DNA of 40,612 bases, taken from sequence record MT446393.1; one strand, written 5' to 3'. A model generated the notes under the pieces. It did no database searches. It saw only the letters and a program-made list of their open reading frames with translations, and was not told the origin of the DNA. Every line of letters starts with the position of its first letter. Positions within the stretch are counted from its first letter, which is position 1. Positions 5,514 to 40,612 of the stretch are shown here, piece by piece. The stretch comes from Escherichia virus TH16. A program made the translations under genes and the position numbers.

Positions 5514-5573
5514 TCCTATAGTTAGTGACTATCAGTCAGGCCGCTATGAGTCTAACGACCTGTAGTTAATCAC
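5514..5573. repeat. Copy 1 of a ~60-bp duplicated early leader element (contains TGACT-ATC-AGTCA inverted repeat)
   Basis: 21 bp identical to 5764..5784 plus flanking similarity to 5755..5822. Confidence 0.6.
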
Positions 5574-5754: not shown

Positions 5755-5822
5755 TCCTACTTAAGTTAGTGACTATCAGTCAGGGCCTTCAGATGTAGAC
5801 TCAAAGACCCTGTAGTTAGTCG
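5755..5822. repeat. Copy 2 of the duplicated early leader element
   Basis: See 5514..5573. Confidence 0.6.
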
Positions 5823-7195: not shown

Positions 7196-8962
7196 CTAGT
7201 GGAGCGTAACGTATGACCCTAGTCCAAGCTCGTCGTCCGTATCGTTAGTTACCCGGACCCCATTGTCCCAGAACTCAGTGTGGATGGACTCGAAGCCTTT
7301 CCGTGGGTTCTCCATCTGTTCCTCCAGCCACTCCTCAGTGACTTCACGTTCGCCTTTGTTGGCATCCTTCGCCATAGACTCAACGAAGAACTGTACACCG
7401 ATAGCCAGCGCATCAAGTCGGTCATCGTGTGCCAAGGCTCCACGCTCACGAGAGATACGGGTCATCTGGTAGAAGAGAGAGTAGATAGGGTTACGAACAC
7501 CGTCCTTATCAGAGGCCGACTGGTAGTCTTGGACGATAGCAGCAGCGTTAACGATAAGTCGGTGAGACCCCATGATAGGCTCCAGAACGTCACAGATGCG
7601 GAGTTCTTTCTGACCCTTACTCTTCACTTCAGTTACAGCAGCAGGATGGATACGGGCCGCTACAGGCTTGAATAACTCAAGGTACATACCATCACCGAAG
7701 TTACCCTCAATGACGTATTCGTTTACCTTCCACTTACGACCAATCTTAGCCAAGGCTTCTAGCGTAGAGTCCTCATAACCACCACGCATACCTCCAACTT
7801 CCATAGCGAAGATGTAGCCGTTGAGCTGATACAGTACCGCATAGCCAGTTTCATCCTTACCACGACCACTAGGGTCAATGACCAGAATCTTCTGGGTGTA
7901 CGAACTGAAGGCAGAACCTACAGTCTGATACGTGTGGTATGAGTCACCCATGAGTCCAACGTTAGGAACGTCCTCACGCTTGTTCTGAGGGTTTGGCAAC
8001 CATTGGTAGACCATTGGGCTGGACGCTGGGTCCAAGTCCGCTACGATAAGGTCACGGAGCTTCAGAGGGTACTTCTCAGCATCACTCAGGTTCGGGTTAA
8101 GCATGAACTGCAGAGCGAAGCCAGCTTTACCATAGGACAGCTCACGTTCCTTCAGGTCCGTATCATCGAATCGTACCTCATCGGTCGGACGCCAGTAGAA
8201 GGGCTCAGGGTCCTCTTCAAGCTCTGCCTGAAGCATCGGTGCCAGACGGTCGCCGTAAGACTGCCAGTCCTTCCTGTCGCGTGGATAACGAGCCGGCCAG
8301 ATAGTAGTGGTATATCCACGGCCTTCAAGCTCACGATACAGGGTCATCTCGTTCTGAGGAGTACCCAGATAGATGATTGTGCCTCCAGGCTTCAGGATAG
8401 CGTCGAACTCTTTAACAAGCTCTGACAGACGGTCTCGTGCAGCCTGAGTCGCTGAGTTGTTAGGAACCTCCACGTCATCTGCAATCAGGATGTCAGCACG
8501 ACTACCAGTCAACTGACCAGTGATACCAACGGACTTAACCGAAGGTGAGTGGTCTGGCTTGGCTGGCCCAACGTCGAAGCTGATAACCGCATCTCGCTGT
8601 CTCTGCTTAGGTTTGAGTTCCTGAAGCTGAGGCATGAGGTCGATGATTCGCTTGATGAAGATGGAGTTAGCATCTGCTCGTTCCTTTGAGGCCGACACAA
8701 TCATGAACTTCAAGTCTGGGTTGTTCCATAGTTTCCAGACCACGAAACCACAGGTCAGAAACGACTTGCCAATACCACGGAACGCCTGAAGGATGAAGCG
8801 GCGATTATCCCCAGCAGCCAGCTTCTTACACATATCTATCTGGCAGCGGGTTGGAACCGGAAGGCTAAGAGCTTTCCAGAGAACGAAGATGAAGAACACG
8901 AAGTCGTCCCTCATCCTTTGGGTCATTTCTGCCTGTCTTTCAGCGGGTGTTTTCTTAGACAT
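7196..8962 (-). CDS. gp19: Terminase large subunit / DNA maturase B (588 aa)
   Basis: Length and sequence similar to T7 gp19; ATG start and TAG stop checked. Confidence 0.95.
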
Positions 8963-9392
8963 ATAGTCCCTCCAACATTAGGTCCCGGACAGCGATAGCC
9001 TCCTCTAAAGTGGGACGTGTTGTGCGCATATAGGCATTCCCGCGTTTAACCTGAATCCTATAACCATTCTGGTGATGGGTAACGCACTTCACTCCCGTCT
9101 TAGAGTCATAATGGCTACCAGTGTTCCAAGTGTTCTCAGCAGCAGTAACGAGCCGTAAGTTACTTAAGGTGTTATTGCTAGGGTTCCTGTCGATGTGGTC
9201 TATTTGCATACCATGTGGTATAGGACCATTGGTTAGTTCCCATATCACACGATGCGCCCGCTTACTGCCTAGACTTCGTGTCTGTACTATCCAATATCCC
9301 ATCAGACTTAATGTCCCCACAGGCTTTCCAGTCCTAACGGAGCCCAGACCGGATGGACTAGCCGGGTCCACTTTGTAGTAATCACTTAACAC
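8955..9392 (-). CDS. HNH homing endonuclease with a C-terminal AP2-like domain (145 aa)
   Basis: HRVIWEL...[20 protein letters not shown]...EN HNH motif; GTG start with AAGGAGG RBS; paralog of 38895..39377. Confidence 0.8.
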
Positions 9393-10193: not shown

Positions 10194-10384
10194 GTTTTAC
10201 CACCTCCTTTAATCGTTTTGTAGACTAGCACACCAATCTGGGCAACGGTGTACGCGATAGCTGCAACGTAGAACCATTCGTTCAGTGTAAGTCCGAAGAA
10301 GAACCTACTGGCACCATCAGCCGCAGCGGTCCCGACGATAGGAGAGGCTTTAAGGACCTCATTCTTGAAGTCTAACTCAATCAT
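10190..10384 (-). CDS. gp17.5: Holin (64 aa)
   Basis: Similarity to T7 gp17.5 (FFFGLTLNEWFYVAAIAYTV). Confidence 0.85.
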   Translation of the reverse strand: MIELDFKNEVLKASPIVGTAAADGASRFFFGLTLNEWFYVAAIAYTVAQIGVLVYKTIKGGGKT

Positions 10385-10489
10385 AAAACCTCCAGTTTAA
10401 AGCGGGTCGTCCGTGACCCAAAGTTGTTACCATACGTTGGTCAGCGTGTAGATAGAGTAAAGAGATGGGAACCATCAGAGCCATTGATA

Positions 10490-13051
10490 TTAAATGGTTT
10501 TTACTTCCCATCGACGGTCATAATAGTGGCTGAATCCACAATACGTTAAAGTCATATGGACAACCGCCATTGACATAGAAGCAGTCGCGGTATCAACACG
10601 AATAAACGTTTTACCGCCCGCCACCATTTTACTTACGGTAATCCCATCAAGAGATTTATCCCCGGCATCCTTATTCGACCATAGAACACCAGAGGCTACG
10701 TTTGCTTCTGTTGACCCAGAAATACTAAACAATAACCGACCTCCTGCTTCGGTGCCCCTCAGCCCATTCTTATTTACGGGTATGATAGACATCTCCCCCG
10801 CCAGAAAGCACCCACCTTCAAATCTGCTTTCTTCTCCAACAGCGGTAAGAAGGATATCTACACAACGGTTCCACGGTAGGATGAACGACGCTGTCTCAGT
10901 TCGTACTTGTCTGAAATACGCTTCGCTGTTAACCGCTGCGGATGACATAAGCACCCCGTTATATGAATTTGCACCTTCAAGTGGCGCAGACCCGTAAACC
11001 CTGCCTCCGACGGATGAGCTTTTTACAAGTGTGTTAGAGTAGACAGCAGTGCCATCGGTGAGTTTGATGAATCTGAACATTTCGCCAAAATAGAACGAGT
11101 TACCGTATGCACCAACGTTAAGGCCGTCCACCTTATTTATCAATTGGATAGTATAATCGGATTTTACATACCCGGAATCCAATACAATACTACCTTTAGG
11201 CATGCGTGATTCATTCTTCGGCGGGGTTATAAATCTCAATACCCCAGTATTCATAGACGACTGAATCCAACACGACACGTTGCGAAACACGACTTTATAG
11301 GTATCGTCAGTTCCTTCGTATGCGGAAAAGTCTAACGCATCGACGCCGTTTATACCCTCTATCCCTAAACCATCGATCTCCAAGCTGCGGATATTACCCA
11401 TAAAAGAGTGAGGCTTGATACACCCGTCAGCAGCGATATTCGTCGATTTTATGTACACAATGGGTGCGCCTGATGCGGGCACTTCAGGGGCATATGTAGT
11501 ACGGTTAATCGCTGCGCCCCATAAATAGCCGTAGTCGCAGTGGTGCGCCCATATCGCTCTCATATCCAGCGAGGTGGAACCGGATACCGCAAAGCCATAG
11601 GTGCAATCGTAAGCATAAAGATTGCTGACAGTGCTTACGAAAGCAGCATTAGGGAACGCGAATTTGTAGTGATAGAACTCGACGTTATTTATGTCAAACA
11701 GCTTGCCTCCACCACCGTTTGTCCCGGGATCACTTATCAGTAAAGGGCACCCGGAATACGCGCTATCTGCGTTACGAAACGCGATGTTATTTACGTGCGG
11801 ATTGTGCGCCCATAGGGTTGAAATAAACCCGCCTTTCCCTGACGTGTAAATAATGCTCTGTCGTGGTTTGACTCCTCGTAAGTCTAAACTCTTGCCAGCC
11901 CATCTGTTTAAGCTAATATCAATCTGGGTGGTACCTATGTAGATTGGCTGTTCGATTAATAAAGGAATATTGTGCGCAATACTTGCGGTATACGCAGCCA
12001 GCATCGCGGCCCCGTCGTTATGGGTTCCGGAAAGGTCGGCAGCCCCCATGCTTGGCGCTTTAGGATATGGAGTTCCCTGAATGGTGCTGCCGTCGATATA
12101 TGGAGCATCCATCCATGCGCCAAACATTTTAGGGGTAATTCCCCGAACGTTTGATAAGTCCCTTTTCCAGCGCTTACCTCCACTAGTAATTATAACAACG
12201 CCATTATCATCATTAGTTGTGGAATCTGCTAAGTCCGCATAGAACCACCCACCACCAGAATCACCAGACTCATTGGGTGTAATTGATGTTGTATGTTTTT
12301 CTACAAAAATGCGCTGGCCATCAACATCAGGTTCAATAGTTCTTAATGTTGATATATCATCGCATTTGCCGATTAACTTAAATCCATCGCTTTTATTTAA
12401 TTGACTCCTTAATGAAGCATCACCAACACTAACCCACGCACCTAGTCCAATCCCACCGGAAGTTTCAGGAGTTGAACCAGCAGGAACGTTCTTTGGAAGC
12501 GTACCATCCCAGCGGTAATAATCACCATCCTCTTCCCATAGCAGGACCTCGTTCCATGTTGTAACGTTGAAGCCTTTCTCGAAGGAGCGACGGGTAATAT
12601 AGCCAATTCGACCAGCTTCCTTGATACTCGCAGCGATTCCTCGTGCTTCGTCCTCGCTATCCTTAGCGTTGCCAGCAGAGGTACCAGCAGCATCGGCATA
12701 TTCCTTCGCTAAGTCAACCGTTTGGTCTCGACCTTCTTCTGCAATATGGATAGCCTGAAGCTCTGCATTGGTCAGGTCACTAGCTGTCAACACTGAGCCA
12801 TTCCTGAAGTCTACCACTAAGTCAGTTCCAGTCTGACGGTGAATACGAACGATGTCGAAACCTGATTGGTCAACCAACATCTCAATCATCGTTGGATTAA
12901 GGAATCGGTAATCTCGACCAACTTCCAGTACACGGTTCATGGTAGGGTTAGAGCTATTCACCAGCGTAACAACAACAAACGTTCTGGCTAGGTAGTCGAA
13001 CTCAATCCTGTACTGAGTGTTTCCTGAAGGGAATTGTGTAATAGTGGACAT
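10490..13051 (-). CDS. gp17: Tail fibre / tailspike (853 aa): T7 gp17-like N-terminal adaptor with a large unrelated C-terminal region
   Basis: N-terminal ~150 aa align with T7 gp17 ([28 protein letters not shown]); the rest is Gly/Ser/Thr-rich and not T7-like. Confidence 0.9.
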
Positions 13052-35464: not shown

Positions 35465-35487
35465 CATCCCTAAGGTGATAGTTTAGC
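35465..35487 (-). promoter_or_regulatory. Variant phage promoter (TAAGG in place of TATAG) upstream of gene 4
   Basis: Minus-strand CTAAACTATCACCTTAGGGATGA; two mismatches in the -4/-3 region. Confidence 0.4.
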
Positions 35488-35695
35488 TGAAGAAGACTTT
35501 CAGTTGCTCGGATTTCTTGTCAAGACCTTTGGCACGGAAACCAGCATCCAGAGACTTGATGCGTAGACTATCCGCTTCCGCAGCAGCCGCTTCCGCACCT
35601 TTAGCCGCAGCATCGGCGACTTTTCGTTCCACACTCGCAGCACGAGAGTAACCACGCACAACCAGACGACCCAGAAATTCGATAAACTTAATCAT
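35483..35695 (-). CDS. Hypothetical protein (70 aa) between lysozyme and gp4
   Basis: ATG start; Ala/Lys-rich helical sequence. Confidence 0.5.
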   Translation of the reverse strand: MIKFIEFLGRLVVRGYSRAASVERKVADAAAKGAEAAAAEADSLRIKSLDAGFRAKGLDKKSEQLKVFFS

Positions 35696-35709: not shown

Positions 35710-36168
35710 TTAGCCTCGGTCGGAAGTGACCAGTTCGTTAGTGTTCAGCCAGCGCTGCAAGTCAAAACTTGGGCAGGCCTTTGGTGCTACGTCGTGGTGA
35801 GCCTTGATGTCTGCCTGAGGATACAGGGACTTCAGGTCAGCCAGCTTGTTGCGCAGTGAGTTCATCTGGGCTCGAGTGAAGTTAGCTTCAAACTGACCCT
35901 TAGCGTTGATTCCACCTACAAGGCAGACGCCTACGGACTTGGAGTTCCAGTCCTTAACGTGTGACCCTACTACATTGACCGGGCGACCCTCTTGCACAGT
36001 GCCATCTCGCTTGATGATAAAGTGGTAGCCTACGTCCAGCCACCCCTGCTGCTTGTGCCACATGCGGATAGTGTCTACCCCGATGTCCTGAGACGGTTGG
36101 GTAGCACTACAGTGAACGAAGATAGCGTCAGTCCGGGACCGTGGTTTGAATTGAACCTTACTTACCAT
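35710..36168 (-). CDS. gp3.5: Lysozyme (N-acetylmuramoyl-L-alanine amidase) (152 aa)
   Basis: Near-identity to T7 lysozyme blocks (VQFK, TDAIFVHCSAT, WLDVGYHFIIKRDGTV, VAPKACPSFDL, NELVTSDRG). Confidence 0.95.
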   Translation of the reverse strand: MVSKVQFKPRSRTDAIFVHCSATQPSQDIGVDTIRMWHKQQGWLDVGYHFIIKRDGTVQEGRPVNVVGSHVKDWNSKSVGVCLVGGINAKGQFEANFTRAQMNSLRNKLADLKSLYPQADIKAHHDVAPKACPSFDLQRWLNTNELVTSDRG

Positions 36169-36628
36169 TGTACACCACCAGCTCTACTACGACCAGATTC
36201 AGATGTGACTGGAAGCGCTGTGCTTCAGTCGTGTGCATCTGGAGCAACTTATGGTTGAATACGTGAGAGTTGCTAATCTTCACGTACACTTCGTCAGGCT
36301 TACCGTGGACGATGAACGTCTGACCTACACCAATCTTGTTGATGGTCAGGACTTCACGTTTAACGGTGACAGGAGGGACACTTGAGGCTGGCAGGACTTG
36401 CGGTTTATCCTCTACGATTTCCTCAAGATTTTCTTTTAAAACCCACGCCCCCCACATACCGTCAGGCTGAGTGTCATAACCTGCTGCTCCGTGTTTATAG
36501 GAGCCACGCTCAGTGGATTCCACCAGAACAAATCCAGATGATGGTACAGGGTCTTTCTCACATTTCGTAACGATAGTACCTTTAGGCCACCCGTAGCCAC
36601 TAACCTTAAGTCTATATTTCTGAGTCAT
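36158..36628 (-). CDS. Orphan hypothetical protein (156 aa) between endonuclease I and lysozyme; no T7 counterpart
   Basis: ATG at 36628 with AAGGAG RBS (track start 36631 is GTG); no recognisable motif. Confidence 0.55.
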   Translation of the reverse strand: MTQKYRLKVSGYGWPKGTIVTKCEKDPVPSSGFVLVESTERGSYKHGAAGYDTQPDGMWGAWVLKENLEEIVEDKPQVLPASSVPPVTVKREVLTINKIGVGQTFIVHGKPDEVYVKISNSHVFNHKLLQMHTTEAQRFQSHLNLVVVELVVYNGK

Positions 36629-37080
36629 CACTTAACTCCTTTCTTCTTGGGGATGAGGATACCTGAAGGCAGACGTACAGTCGCCTCCCTCAGCCACTCA
36701 ACCGGGATAAACTTGTCGGCAAACTTAAAGCCGTTCTTTTCGCACCATGCACCATACGTGGTCGGAGATCCTTTGTATAGCTTGGAGCGGGAACTTGAGA
36801 ACACGAACCTAATGTCTAGCTCTGGGTGCTGTTCTCGTACCAGAAGGTGCTTCTTACGGTCATCACTATCGAAGATGCCTTTGGTCTCCACGATGATACC
36901 GTTAGGAAGGATAAAATCTGGTGTGTACTTGTGGTCGGAAGCCGGAATCACATAGTTGATATAATGGCTTTCGTACTCCGCTTTTACGCCGTTCTGTTCC
37001 AGCCACTGCTGGTTCTTGGCTTCAAGTCCAGAGCGGTAGGCACCCACAGAGTGCCCCCGTTTTGCAGACCATTGGGCCAT
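36628..37080 (-). CDS. gp3: Endonuclease I (Holliday junction resolvase) (150 aa)
   Basis: Similarity to T7 gp3 (YVIPAS.H.YTPDF.LPNGI.VETKG, DDRKKHLL.REQHPELDIR.VFSSSR.KLYKGSPT). Confidence 0.95.
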   Translation of the reverse strand: MAQWSAKRGHSVGAYRSGLEAKNQQWLEQNGVKAEYESHYINYVIPASDHKYTPDFILPNGIIVETKGIFDSDDRKKHLLVREQHPELDIRFVFSSSRSKLYKGSPTTYGAWCEKNGFKFADKFIPVEWLREATVRLPSGILIPKKKGVK

Positions 37081-37818: not shown

Positions 37819-37841
37819 CTGTCCTACAGTGATAGTTTAGG
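37819..37841 (-). promoter_or_regulatory. Phage RNAP promoter (phi2.5-like), TACAG variant
   Basis: Minus-strand CTAAACTATCACTGTAGGAC. Confidence 0.55.
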
Positions 37842-37995
37842 TCTCAGGACGAATCCGTCCGACCACAAACCCAGCGTCCTCATACTCTTGGGACTTCATG
37901 GTAGCCTCTTCAAGAGACTTTGCGTACACCGGAACCTCGAAGGACTGAACGCGCCCCTCAAGCTCCACGATGTATTTCTTTTCCTCAAGTCTCAT
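37837..37995 (-). CDS. gp2: gp2-like inhibitor of host RNA polymerase (52 aa from the ATG)
   Basis: [14 protein letters not shown]...GFVVGRIRP resembles remembered T7 Gp2; AAGGAG RBS; track ORF begins with GTG at 38058. Confidence 0.75.
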
Positions 37996-38894: not shown

Positions 38895-39377
38895 TTATAA
38901 TGAATCTCTTAAGGCTACTGCCTCGGCTATGGTCTTGGCATAACGGACCACACGTTCTCCATTAGCAACCTTCTTGATGCAGTATAGCTCTCGGCCTTTC
39001 ACTTTGGAGATGTGACGCTCTCCCGTGGCGTTGGTTGACATCTGGCCTTTGTTCTGGTTGTTCTCTGAGTGAGTCACCAGACGCAGGTTTGAAAGCCTGT
39101 TGTTGGAAGGGTTCCTGTCAATGTGGTCAATCTCCATACCATCTGGTATTTGGCCATATGCAAGTTCCCATATTACCCGATGTACCTGTAGGTGTTTGCG
39201 TCCCCACGGTGTCCTTACGTTTATTGTCCAATAGCCAGAAGTCTTCTTACTACCGACCCTTCTCCCAGAGTTAAGTGCCAGCCCTGAGGCCGACCTTTCA
39301 TCAACCTTAAATCTTGACTGTAGGATTGTCCTCAGTCCCTCGCCATTGGTAGAATGACGGGTGTCGCAGACTTCCAT
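38895..39377 (-). CDS. HNH homing endonuclease with AP2-like domain (about 160 aa from the ATG); overlaps the 3' end of the ligase gene
   Basis: [41 protein letters not shown]; ATG at 39377 with GGAGGAG RBS (track start 39512 is TTG). Confidence 0.8.
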   Translation of the reverse strand: MEVCDTRHSTNGEGLRTILQSRFKVDERSASGLALNSGRRVGSKKTSGYWTINVRTPWGRKHLQVHRVIWELAYGQIPDGMEIDHIDRNPSNNRLSNLRLVTHSENNQNKGQMSTNATGERHISKVKGRELYCIKKVANGERVVRYAKTIAEAVALRDSL

Positions 39378-40338
39378 CTGGTGTCTCCTCCATGTAGGTG
39401 ATTTGACAAGCCCACCCATTGTAGTAATCAGGGTCTGACTTAACGTTATCTGTGAACTCGGACATAAGGGCGCGACTAATGTTAGTTGCGGAGACCTCCA
39501 TCCCGTTCTCAAGCATCACGTCAAATCCGATGACCATGCCCTCGTTGGCTAGGCCATCCGTACCCCACACAGGGCGCACAACATGACCGTCTGCCTCTTC
39601 GCTCGGCTTCATCTTCCACATGCCAGACTTCTTGCCACGCTTCCAGCGTCCAAGAGGGTCTTTAACTACCAGACCTTCTTGCCCATCTGCGCGCTTCTCT
39701 TCGTACAAATCCTGAAGAGACTCAAGGTCGTACACTGTATGACTCTCAGATAATACCCAGTCGATTTCCGGGAAGTATTTCTGGAGGAGAGGGACGATAG
39801 CTTCGGCCTTCAGGCGAGTGACGCTATGGATAGGGCCTTCGGCTTTCGGGTCGGTGATGACGTTAAGGTCCACGATACCGTAGACGACCACCTTGATATG
39901 GGCTCGGTCCAGCCTGAACTGAGTAGTCTTGGACTTGAGGTCCCAATCGCCATCGTGGAAGTCGTAGTTTTTAGACTTGACATACTTCGTGCGAATGAGA
40001 CCTGAAGACGTATTGAAGTCCACTCCTTTTACCATGACCTCGCCATCAATCATCAGGCCAGTGCCTTCGTATCCAGCCTGCTTCAGGAACCACAGCCAGT
40101 CGCTAGACTCGGTCTCCCAGAGGTCCTCTCGAGAAGTGTCCAGCCAGCTCAGGGCCGGAAGTGACTTAGACTCACGGCTCAACCATTGGGTCTCACCAGT
40201 AGGGAAGACCGGGAGGTTCAACCGGACACCATCGTACTTCACTTCAGCTTCCAGCGACCCAGCAGCTTCCAGAGCCTTCTTAACGCCAGACTCAGAGTAA
40301 TCTACAGCGCGGTGCGGGTTAGTTTTAATAGTTGTCAT
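39307..40338 (-). CDS. gp1.3: ATP-dependent DNA ligase (343 aa from the ATG); its 5' part is duplicated at 1..394
   Basis: KYDGVR adenylation motif and strong similarity to T7 ligase (MKPSEEADG, DGSLRHPSF..RGTEDNP); GGAG RBS before the ATG at 40338. Confidence 0.95.
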   Translation of the reverse strand: MTTIKTNPHRAVDYSESGVKKALEAAGSLEAEVKYDGVRLNLPVFPTGETQWLSRESKSLPALSWLDTSREDLWETESSDWLWFLKQAGYEGTGLMIDGEVMVKGVDFNTSSGLIRTKYVKSKNYDFHDGDWDLKSKTTQFRLDRAHIKVVVYGIVDLNVITDPKAEGPIHSVTRLKAEAIVPLLQKYFPEIDWVLSESHTVYDLESLQDLYEEKRADGQEGLVVKDPLGRWKRGKKSGMWKMKPSEEADGHVVRPVWGTDGLANEGMVIGFDVMLENGMEVSATNISRALMSEFTDNVKSDPDYYNGWACQITYMEETPDGSLRHPSFYQWRGTEDNPTVKI

Positions 40339-40612
40339 TGTGTTATCTCCATGTGTCGAGTTGGTTAGCGAGACAGTTAAGGAAGCCTGTGGCAGTGTTG
40401 TACAGTACGTCTTCATCGCGGTGTGCGAAGATCTTAAGCGCGAAGATGTTACCAGCTCGGTCCTCGACTTGAAGTCTCATGAACTCTTTCCGAAGATGCG
40501 CCTCGTACCAGTCCTGCTGTATCACGCAGAAGTCTAACTGATATAGTCGGTTACACGCTGCTTTGAAAGCGTTTAGGTTGCCACTGTAAAGTCTGCCCAT
40601 AGCGTTATGCTC

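Follow-up and report, generated by a model that had tools for sequence, protein, structure and literature searches.

Gene 3.2 of Escherichia virus TH16 joins a conserved C-terminal domain to an exchangeable N-terminal module

Introduction

Phages of the T7 group carry conserved, conditionally dispensable accessory proteins that interact with the host, among them gp0.3 (Ocr), gp1.2, gp4.5, gp5.5 and gp5.9. T7 itself has no gene between genes 3 (10257-10706) and 3.5 (10706-11161), which abut, as a preliminary description of the DNA studied here had pointed out. At the corresponding position K1F and EcoDS1 encode a protein named gp3.2, and CR44b one named gp3.01. A shorter gp3.2 of 74 aa, classed as PHROG 15211, is found in Cronobacter phage Dev2 and Citrobacter phage SH4 (PMC4925675). 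Upon searching the literature, we found no paper on the function of gp3.2, whose mentions are confined to annotation tables ("hypothetical protein" or "gp3.2").

Here, we analysed the gene at this position in Escherichia virus TH16 (MT446393.1), where "the window" denotes the whole stretch of 40,612 nucleotides. Comparing the gene with its relatives by sequence, predicted structure and selection statistics, we found a modular organisation and natural knockouts that, as far as could be found, are new to the searchable literature.

Results

Gene 3.2 overlaps both of its neighbours

The window is T7-like, with every gene located on the minus strand. The preliminary description had placed a 156-aa open reading frame with a strong ribosome-binding site between endonuclease I and lysozyme, overlapping both, and each of these elements was borne out at the following positions:

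36158..36628, minus strand: gene 3.2 (156 aa and a stop codon), orthologous to gp3.2 of K1F/EcoDS1
36636..36640, minus strand: ribosome-binding site AGGAG of gene 3.2, read from the sequence, 7 nt 5' of the ATG and within the 3' end of gene 3
36628..37080, minus strand: gene 3, endonuclease I, the upstream neighbour (Pfam Phage_endo_I, E 8.7e-82)
35710..36168, minus strand: gene 3.5, T7-type lysozyme/amidase, the downstream neighbour (Pfam Amidase_2, E 2.9e-16)
36158..36168, minus strand: 11-nt overlap of the gene 3.2 stop with the gene 3.5 start (ATGGTAAGTAA)

The gene runs from an ATG at 36628-36626 to a stop at 36160-36158, and its start shares 1 nt with the endonuclease I TGA (36630-36628). 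The listing of open reading frames begins one codon earlier, with a GTG at 36631, whereas the ATG is the first codon in all gp3.2 homologues (MTQKY/MSKQF).

Eleven copies of a 23-nt phage-promoter-like motif (minus-strand core CCTAAACTATCACTATAGG) occur in the window. Two of the copies flank the region of interest:

37823..37845, minus strand: phage-RNA-polymerase promoter-like 23-mer, equivalent to phi2.5, before gene 2.5 and nearest upstream for genes 2.5-3-3.2-3.5-3.7; the CR44b and EcoDS1 records carry annotated promoters at sites equivalent to it
35469..35491, minus strand: the 23-mer that comes next, also phage-promoter-like, downstream of gene 3.7

As these 23-mers lie on either side and none of the 11 copies falls within gene 3.2, genes 2.5, 3, 3.2, 3.5 and 3.7 form one promoter-to-promoter block. 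Between 35400 and 37400 we found no sigma-70-like promoter, and the sole terminator-like site there, within gene 3.5, was at chance level. The literature search returned no paper with transcript or proteome data for gp3.2.

Gene 3.2 belongs to a catalogued family fixed within its genus

The preliminary description had called the gene an orphan, which did not hold: K1F-like phages carry this frame as their standard gene 3.2, known as gp3.2 in K1F and EcoDS1, as gp3.01 in CR44b, as PHROG 16385, and from many annotated records. The full-length protein (residues 1-156) matched the profile phrog_16385 at E 1.7e-93, and residues 87-156 matched phrog_15211 at E 8e-40; both PHROGs are labelled "function unknown". 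The K1F, EcoDS1 and CR44b proteins, which are among the tblastn matches, are full-length orthologues with 73-81% amino-acid identity that share with the window protein the type-A N-terminal module, linker and C-terminal domain described below, as well as the position and both overlaps, and differ from it only allelically, mostly at the variable N-module positions. The closest gp3.2 record, that of EFA-1, is 98% identical, and the window region as a whole is 95.8% identical to MT350292 and ~90% identical to many Escherichia Kayfunavirus genomes. The former record (MT350292.1, locus L005, UNVERIFIED_ORG) is labelled "Enterococcus phage EFA-1" and is taxonomically a Kayfunavirus; as it is a typical enterobacterial Kayfunavirus, the Enterococcus host label is probably wrong.

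By tblastn, gp3.2 was found in 219 phage records (54 of them with full-length matches), always between genes 3 and 3.5, and a collection of 5.8 billion proteins held 256 gp3.2 clusters. An exhaustive phmmer search of 1.8 billion representatives gave 16 matches, all from the gp3.2 family save one spurious repeat protein. That exception (P0133, 2174 aa, E 1.8e-8 at residues 4-29) was rejected as non-homologous, its score being inflated because a 26-residue stretch (EYRLRVAGYGGATGDIVLNW) recurs in its repeats and gave nine matched stretches. No gp3.2 relatives were found in 185,579 bacterial and archaeal genomes, and profile searches with the C- and N-terminal domains detected no distant homologues outside these phages.

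We then queried with the last 150 nt of gene 3 fused directly to the gene 3.5 start, and took an even sample of rows from the whole ranking. At ≥86% identity, each of the 13 records in the sample gave a two-piece match with an insert of 225-490 nt, whereas the 15 full-length matches sampled at 65-69% identity, which came from other genera of Studiervirinae, were all contiguous, as in T7. Among the loci analysed in detail, gene 3.2 lay directly between genes 3 and 3.5 in 35 of 35, its start abutting or overlapping the end of gene 3 and its last 11 nt overlapping gene 3.5 unless an HNH gene was inserted; position and overlaps were the same in the two most divergent members (60% identity). Gene 3.2 is an insertion relative to T7 and a fixed feature within its own genus, in keeping with the earlier proposal of a clean accessory insertion in the class II region: it is an extra gene, set seamlessly between genes 3 and 3.5. 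The gp3.2 of the window is a further member of a family that is already catalogued and uncharacterised.

The statement that the protein has no recognisable motif likewise stood, as searches against Pfam, NCBIfam, PADLOC and the PDB sequences returned nothing for the whole protein, its isolated domains or six other gp3.2 architectures. Matches to Imm11 (E 0.04-0.08), DUF3158, the DM10-containing RIB72/CARP4, ETS, DruB and Cas6 were sub-threshold, short and mutually inconsistent, and we rejected them. PADLOC, covering known defence families, had no match for the window protein and gave weak, non-credible matches (E 0.002-0.003) for two other gp3.2 variants. Neither a nuclease motif nor a Pfam match pointed to an HNH or homing endonuclease identity. 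An "endonuclease VII" label on the homologue from Escherichia phage vB_EcoM_SHAK9454 is an artefact of an annotation shift; in that record (OR594184.1, locus L001), the annotation is displaced by 2,775 bp relative to the sequence.

A basic C-terminal domain is constant throughout the genus

Gene 3.2 has a two-module architecture that the preliminary description did not mention, in which a hypervariable, exchangeable N-terminal module precedes a very conserved C-terminal domain:

36161..36364, minus strand: C-terminal domain of 68 aa, basic and conserved (residues 89-156; pN/pS 0.125, pI 9.5), the counterpart of PHROG 15211

Eighteen of its residues are invariant in both alignment A1 (91 sequences) and alignment A3 (22 sequences), namely R91, V101, G102, F105, P111, V114, Y115, V116, K117, I118, S119, S121, H122, F124, H132, T134, R138 and L143. 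They include an invariant core, VYVKIS-x-SH...H-x-T...R, at residues 114-138, with a polar cluster formed by S119, S121, H122, H132, T134 and R138 that leaves room for a possible catalytic or metal-binding role. The domain is basic in all architectures (pI 8.3-10.1). Two AF2 runs on the domain gave pLDDT values of 33-56 and hence no confident model.

The 74-aa gp3.2 of Dev2 and SH4, which occupies the same site in the genome and is just as basic (pI 9.7-9.8), is homologous to residues 87-156 with 77-80% identity and, unlike the window protein, has neither N module nor linker. It consists of the C domain alone, so this domain is the autonomous core of the protein.

A papain-like peptidase of the NlpC/P60 type was considered for the domain and found to be unsupported by catalytic residues, Pfam and hhalign: there is not a single conserved Cys throughout the domain, and E113, which aligns by eye with the NlpC/P60 catalytic His, is Val in P0130 and P0131. 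A reading in which gp3.2 serves gp3.5, be it as a separately encoded cell-wall-binding or degenerate NlpC/P60-like amidase subunit or as a modulator of the lysozyme-RNA polymerase interaction, strikes us as distinctly improbable.

The N-terminal module is an exchangeable cassette

Two further features precede the C domain:

36413..36628, minus strand: N-terminal module, residues 1-72, a predicted type-A SH3-like beta-barrel in a hypervariable cassette
36365..36412, minus strand: proline-rich linker, residues 73-88 (EDKPQVLPASSVPPVT; KPQVLPASSVPPVT), delimited from the alignments and predicted to be unstructured

Residues 1-72 were predicted at pLDDT >90 to form an SH3-like fold, a small barrel of five strands that can be superposed on SH3 domains. 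Its conserved Gly/Pro/Trp scaffold (GWPxGTIVTKC...QPDGMWGAWV) carries stretches that vary in the alignments, at residues 8-12, 28-34, 38-53 and 64-67, and mean column entropy was 1.16 bits in the N domain versus 0.22 bits in the C domain. The isolated N domain had no Pfam or NCBIfam match to SH3, SH3b or KOW families at E values up to 10, and a search of the predicted viral structures in BFVD gave no significant match. Sequence identity to SH3-like small barrels (eukaryotic SH3, the N-terminal barrel of Hpy99I [3fc3], the Xrn1 SH3-like domain, KorB-C and NusG/Spt5 KOW) was 4-25%. The predicted fold is a generic one and gives no pointer to the function of gp3.2.

In relatives, the same linker and C domain follow one or another of at least six modules (A, M, B, C, D and E) that are unrelated to each other, the linker marking the downstream boundary of the exchangeable cassette. 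Some gp3.2 proteins of 226-227 aa carry A and M in tandem, and the 74-aa forms of Dev2/SH4 and of many Salmonella, Klebsiella and Enterobacter phages have no N module; modules A, M and B were found at the gene 3.2 locus only. Profile comparisons between modules revealed no relation apart from a weak 17-column hairpin motif common to M and the C domain (10% probability), and we rejected the idea that the modules are diverged duplicates, as types A, M and B and the C domain have no profile similarity. No obvious link emerged between N-module diversity and host genus.

At the DNA level, identity to the window was for the most part 80-100% both in gene 3 and in the stretch that starts with the linker, versus 20-50% across the N module and 47-70% between type-A alleles, while synonymous divergence in the N module was about twice that of its flanks. 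This combination of low identity and raised synonymous divergence indicates old alleles that were shuffled between otherwise similar genomes.

HNH_3 homing-endonuclease genes lie between genes 2.5 and 3 in loci L001, L013, L014, L025, L033 and L039, and between genes 3.2 and 3.5 in loci L002 and L035. Since such insertions occur on either side of gene 3/3.2, the region is a mobile-element hotspot and a possible cause of cassette exchange, and the HNH genes could have driven gene conversion at the N cassette.

Purifying selection acts on the protein

Nei-Gojobori statistics from 12 genomes put pN/pS at 0.39 in the N domain, 0.19 in the linker and 0.125 in the C domain; gene 3 had a value of 0.10 and gene 3.5 one of 0.13, so that constraint on the C domain is comparable to that on the essential neighbour genes. 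Synonymous divergence was 0.35-0.41 in the C domain versus 0.24-0.33 in the neighbours. As it is at least that of the neighbours, the conservation of the C domain acts on the protein, and a nucleotide-level element was rejected as its source, given normal synonymous divergence and no internal promoter. Gene 3.2 is a real protein-coding gene under purifying selection. The overall pN/pS of the N domain, at below 1, gives no signal of positive selection.

Natural variants have lost either half of the gene

In Escherichia virus TH20 (MT446394.1) and in an SRA assembly that matches it, 161 nt between two GTCAC repeats are deleted. This deletion shifts the frame and removes the C domain of gp3.2, and it keeps the last ~40 nt, with the gene 3.5 ribosome-binding site. 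Two SRA assemblies have a larger deletion of ~263 nt with the same right-hand limit; besides MT446394.1, the C-domain deletion loci are L039:3001-3306 and L040/L041:3001-3204. Conversely, P0123, P0136 and P0138 have lost the N module by in-frame deletion. In the complete genome ERR4457289 (Logan; L035:2501-2974), a +2 insertion at an AT repeat (codon 4-5) and a +1 insertion in a G run (around nt 175) scramble codons 5-59 and restore the frame for the C domain, although sequencing error is possible in this case. In the window, too, the alternative frame that this variant uses is open, giving a 54-aa open reading frame at 36436..36600 on the minus strand.

Since natural deletions or scrambling affect either half, gene 3.2 is dispensable, at least in some phage-host pairs. 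The accessory status proposed in the preliminary description was thereby upheld, with a cultured isolate, TH20, among the natural knockouts. Interruption of the frame in related genomes, which had been named as a refuting outcome, was confined to a few rare variants, and the rest are under strong purifying selection. Knockout and scrambled variants are a small minority of the gp3.2 protein clusters examined. Gene 3.2 is thus under selection yet non-essential.

Could the region then lack a protein function, being a translated spacer that carries ribosomes and the ribosome-binding site to gene 3.5, or a decaying remnant of a mobile element? The last ~40 nt before the gene 3.5 ATG, which contain that ribosome-binding site, are present in all deletion variants, the double-frameshift variant regains the reading frame, and homing endonuclease genes flank the locus in relatives, all of which such a reading would accommodate. 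It is nevertheless at odds with a C-domain pN/pS as low as 0.125 at normally diverging synonymous sites, with 18 positions that stay invariant in both alignments among members down to 60% identity, and with the direct coupling of gene 3 to gene 3.5 in T7 and other genera. Moreover, the out-of-frame deletion variants keep an intact gene 3.5 in complete genomes, including one cultured isolate. We consider this explanation highly improbable.

Discussion

We tentatively propose, with a probability of roughly one in three (about 0.35), that gp3.2 serves as an adaptor in host interaction, with no enzymatic activity, a working domain that stays constant and heads that can be exchanged. We favour this reading because the protein has no enzyme signature, its binding fold is small and generic, its constant domain also occurs alone and its hypervariable head is exchangeable, and because constraint and viable knockouts coexist in a gene confined to lytic phages. 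In such a scheme, gp3.2 would act on the host in the middle phase of infection as a binding or adaptor protein. The work would fall to the constant C domain, which would bind one conserved macromolecular partner and, in the 74-aa forms, suffice by itself. A second contact, one that varies with the host, would be added or tuned by the exchangeable N-terminal barrels and may serve, for example, to escape or neutralise variable host factors, defence systems among them.

We infer this role from the evolutionary pattern and from an analogy with the T7-group accessory proteins gp0.3, gp1.2, gp4.5, gp5.5 and gp5.9, which resemble gp3.2 in being small, early or middle, conserved, dispensable and devoid of enzymatic motifs. 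The likeness is one of analogy, as gp3.2 has no sequence or structural relation to them, and to our knowledge exchange of an N-terminal domain is not a feature of any of the five proteins.

A bolder version of the adaptor hypothesis would make gp3.2 a modular counter-defence or host-takeover protein of a new type, which we regard as rather unlikely. Here, a new-fold, His-bearing C domain would neutralise a conserved enterobacterial factor, while the N slot would serve as an arms-race cassette. Recombination would exchange unrelated small barrels there so that they match variable host factors, and the flanking homing endonucleases may stimulate these exchanges. The same cassette pattern could also have arisen from gene conversion driven by homing endonucleases, with no arms race involved, since HNH genes flank the gene 3.2 locus in relatives.

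Alternatively, gp3.2 might be a nucleic-acid-binding accessory of the DNA-metabolism genes. Its small basic C domain, perhaps together with the SH3-like barrel, would bind DNA or RNA and assist or restrain endonuclease I, gp2.5, recombination or replication, much as Sso7d, KOW domains and other small, basic beta-barrels bind DNA. Against this, neither sequence nor profile searches linked the protein to a DNA-binding family, the majority of N modules are acidic or neutral, the gene is dispensable and SH3-like folds are generic. Furthermore, other Studiervirinae use the same gene 3 and gene 2.5 machinery with no gp3.2. We regard this reading, too, as rather unlikely. The probability that remains goes to readings other than those named in this work.

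Gene 3.2 is one of the few differences between the genus and T7 in an otherwise collinear class II region. With its constant domain, N cassette and viable knockouts, it would be a tractable candidate for a host-interaction function. Kayfunaviruses are used in therapy and engineering, as with K1F and Salmonella Typhi phages, and gene 3.2 offers a dispensable locus that could be replaced in phage engineering.

Additional observations

Positions 1-668 of the window are an exact repeat of 39945-40612, which implies a unit genome of 39,944 bp; the repeated 668 bases appear to reflect terminal redundancy or overlapping ends of the assembly, and not additional sequence. Elsewhere, a 21-nt exact direct repeat (AGTTAGTGACTATCAGTCAGG) occurs at 5520-5540 and 5764-5784, 244 nt apart. 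In the record of Enterobacter phage IME278 (MW748991.1, L007:2563-2638), a pseudo-tRNA is annotated between genes 3.7 and 4. The window also encodes two HNH-type homing-endonuclease-like genes:

38895..39512, minus strand: HNH-type homing-endonuclease-like gene (Pfam HNH_3, E 3.6e-23)
8955..9392, minus strand: second HNH-type homing-endonuclease-like gene, just upstream (5') of the large open reading frame 7196..8962

These two genes share a 133-nt repeat at 71% identity and a common HRVIWEL... motif.
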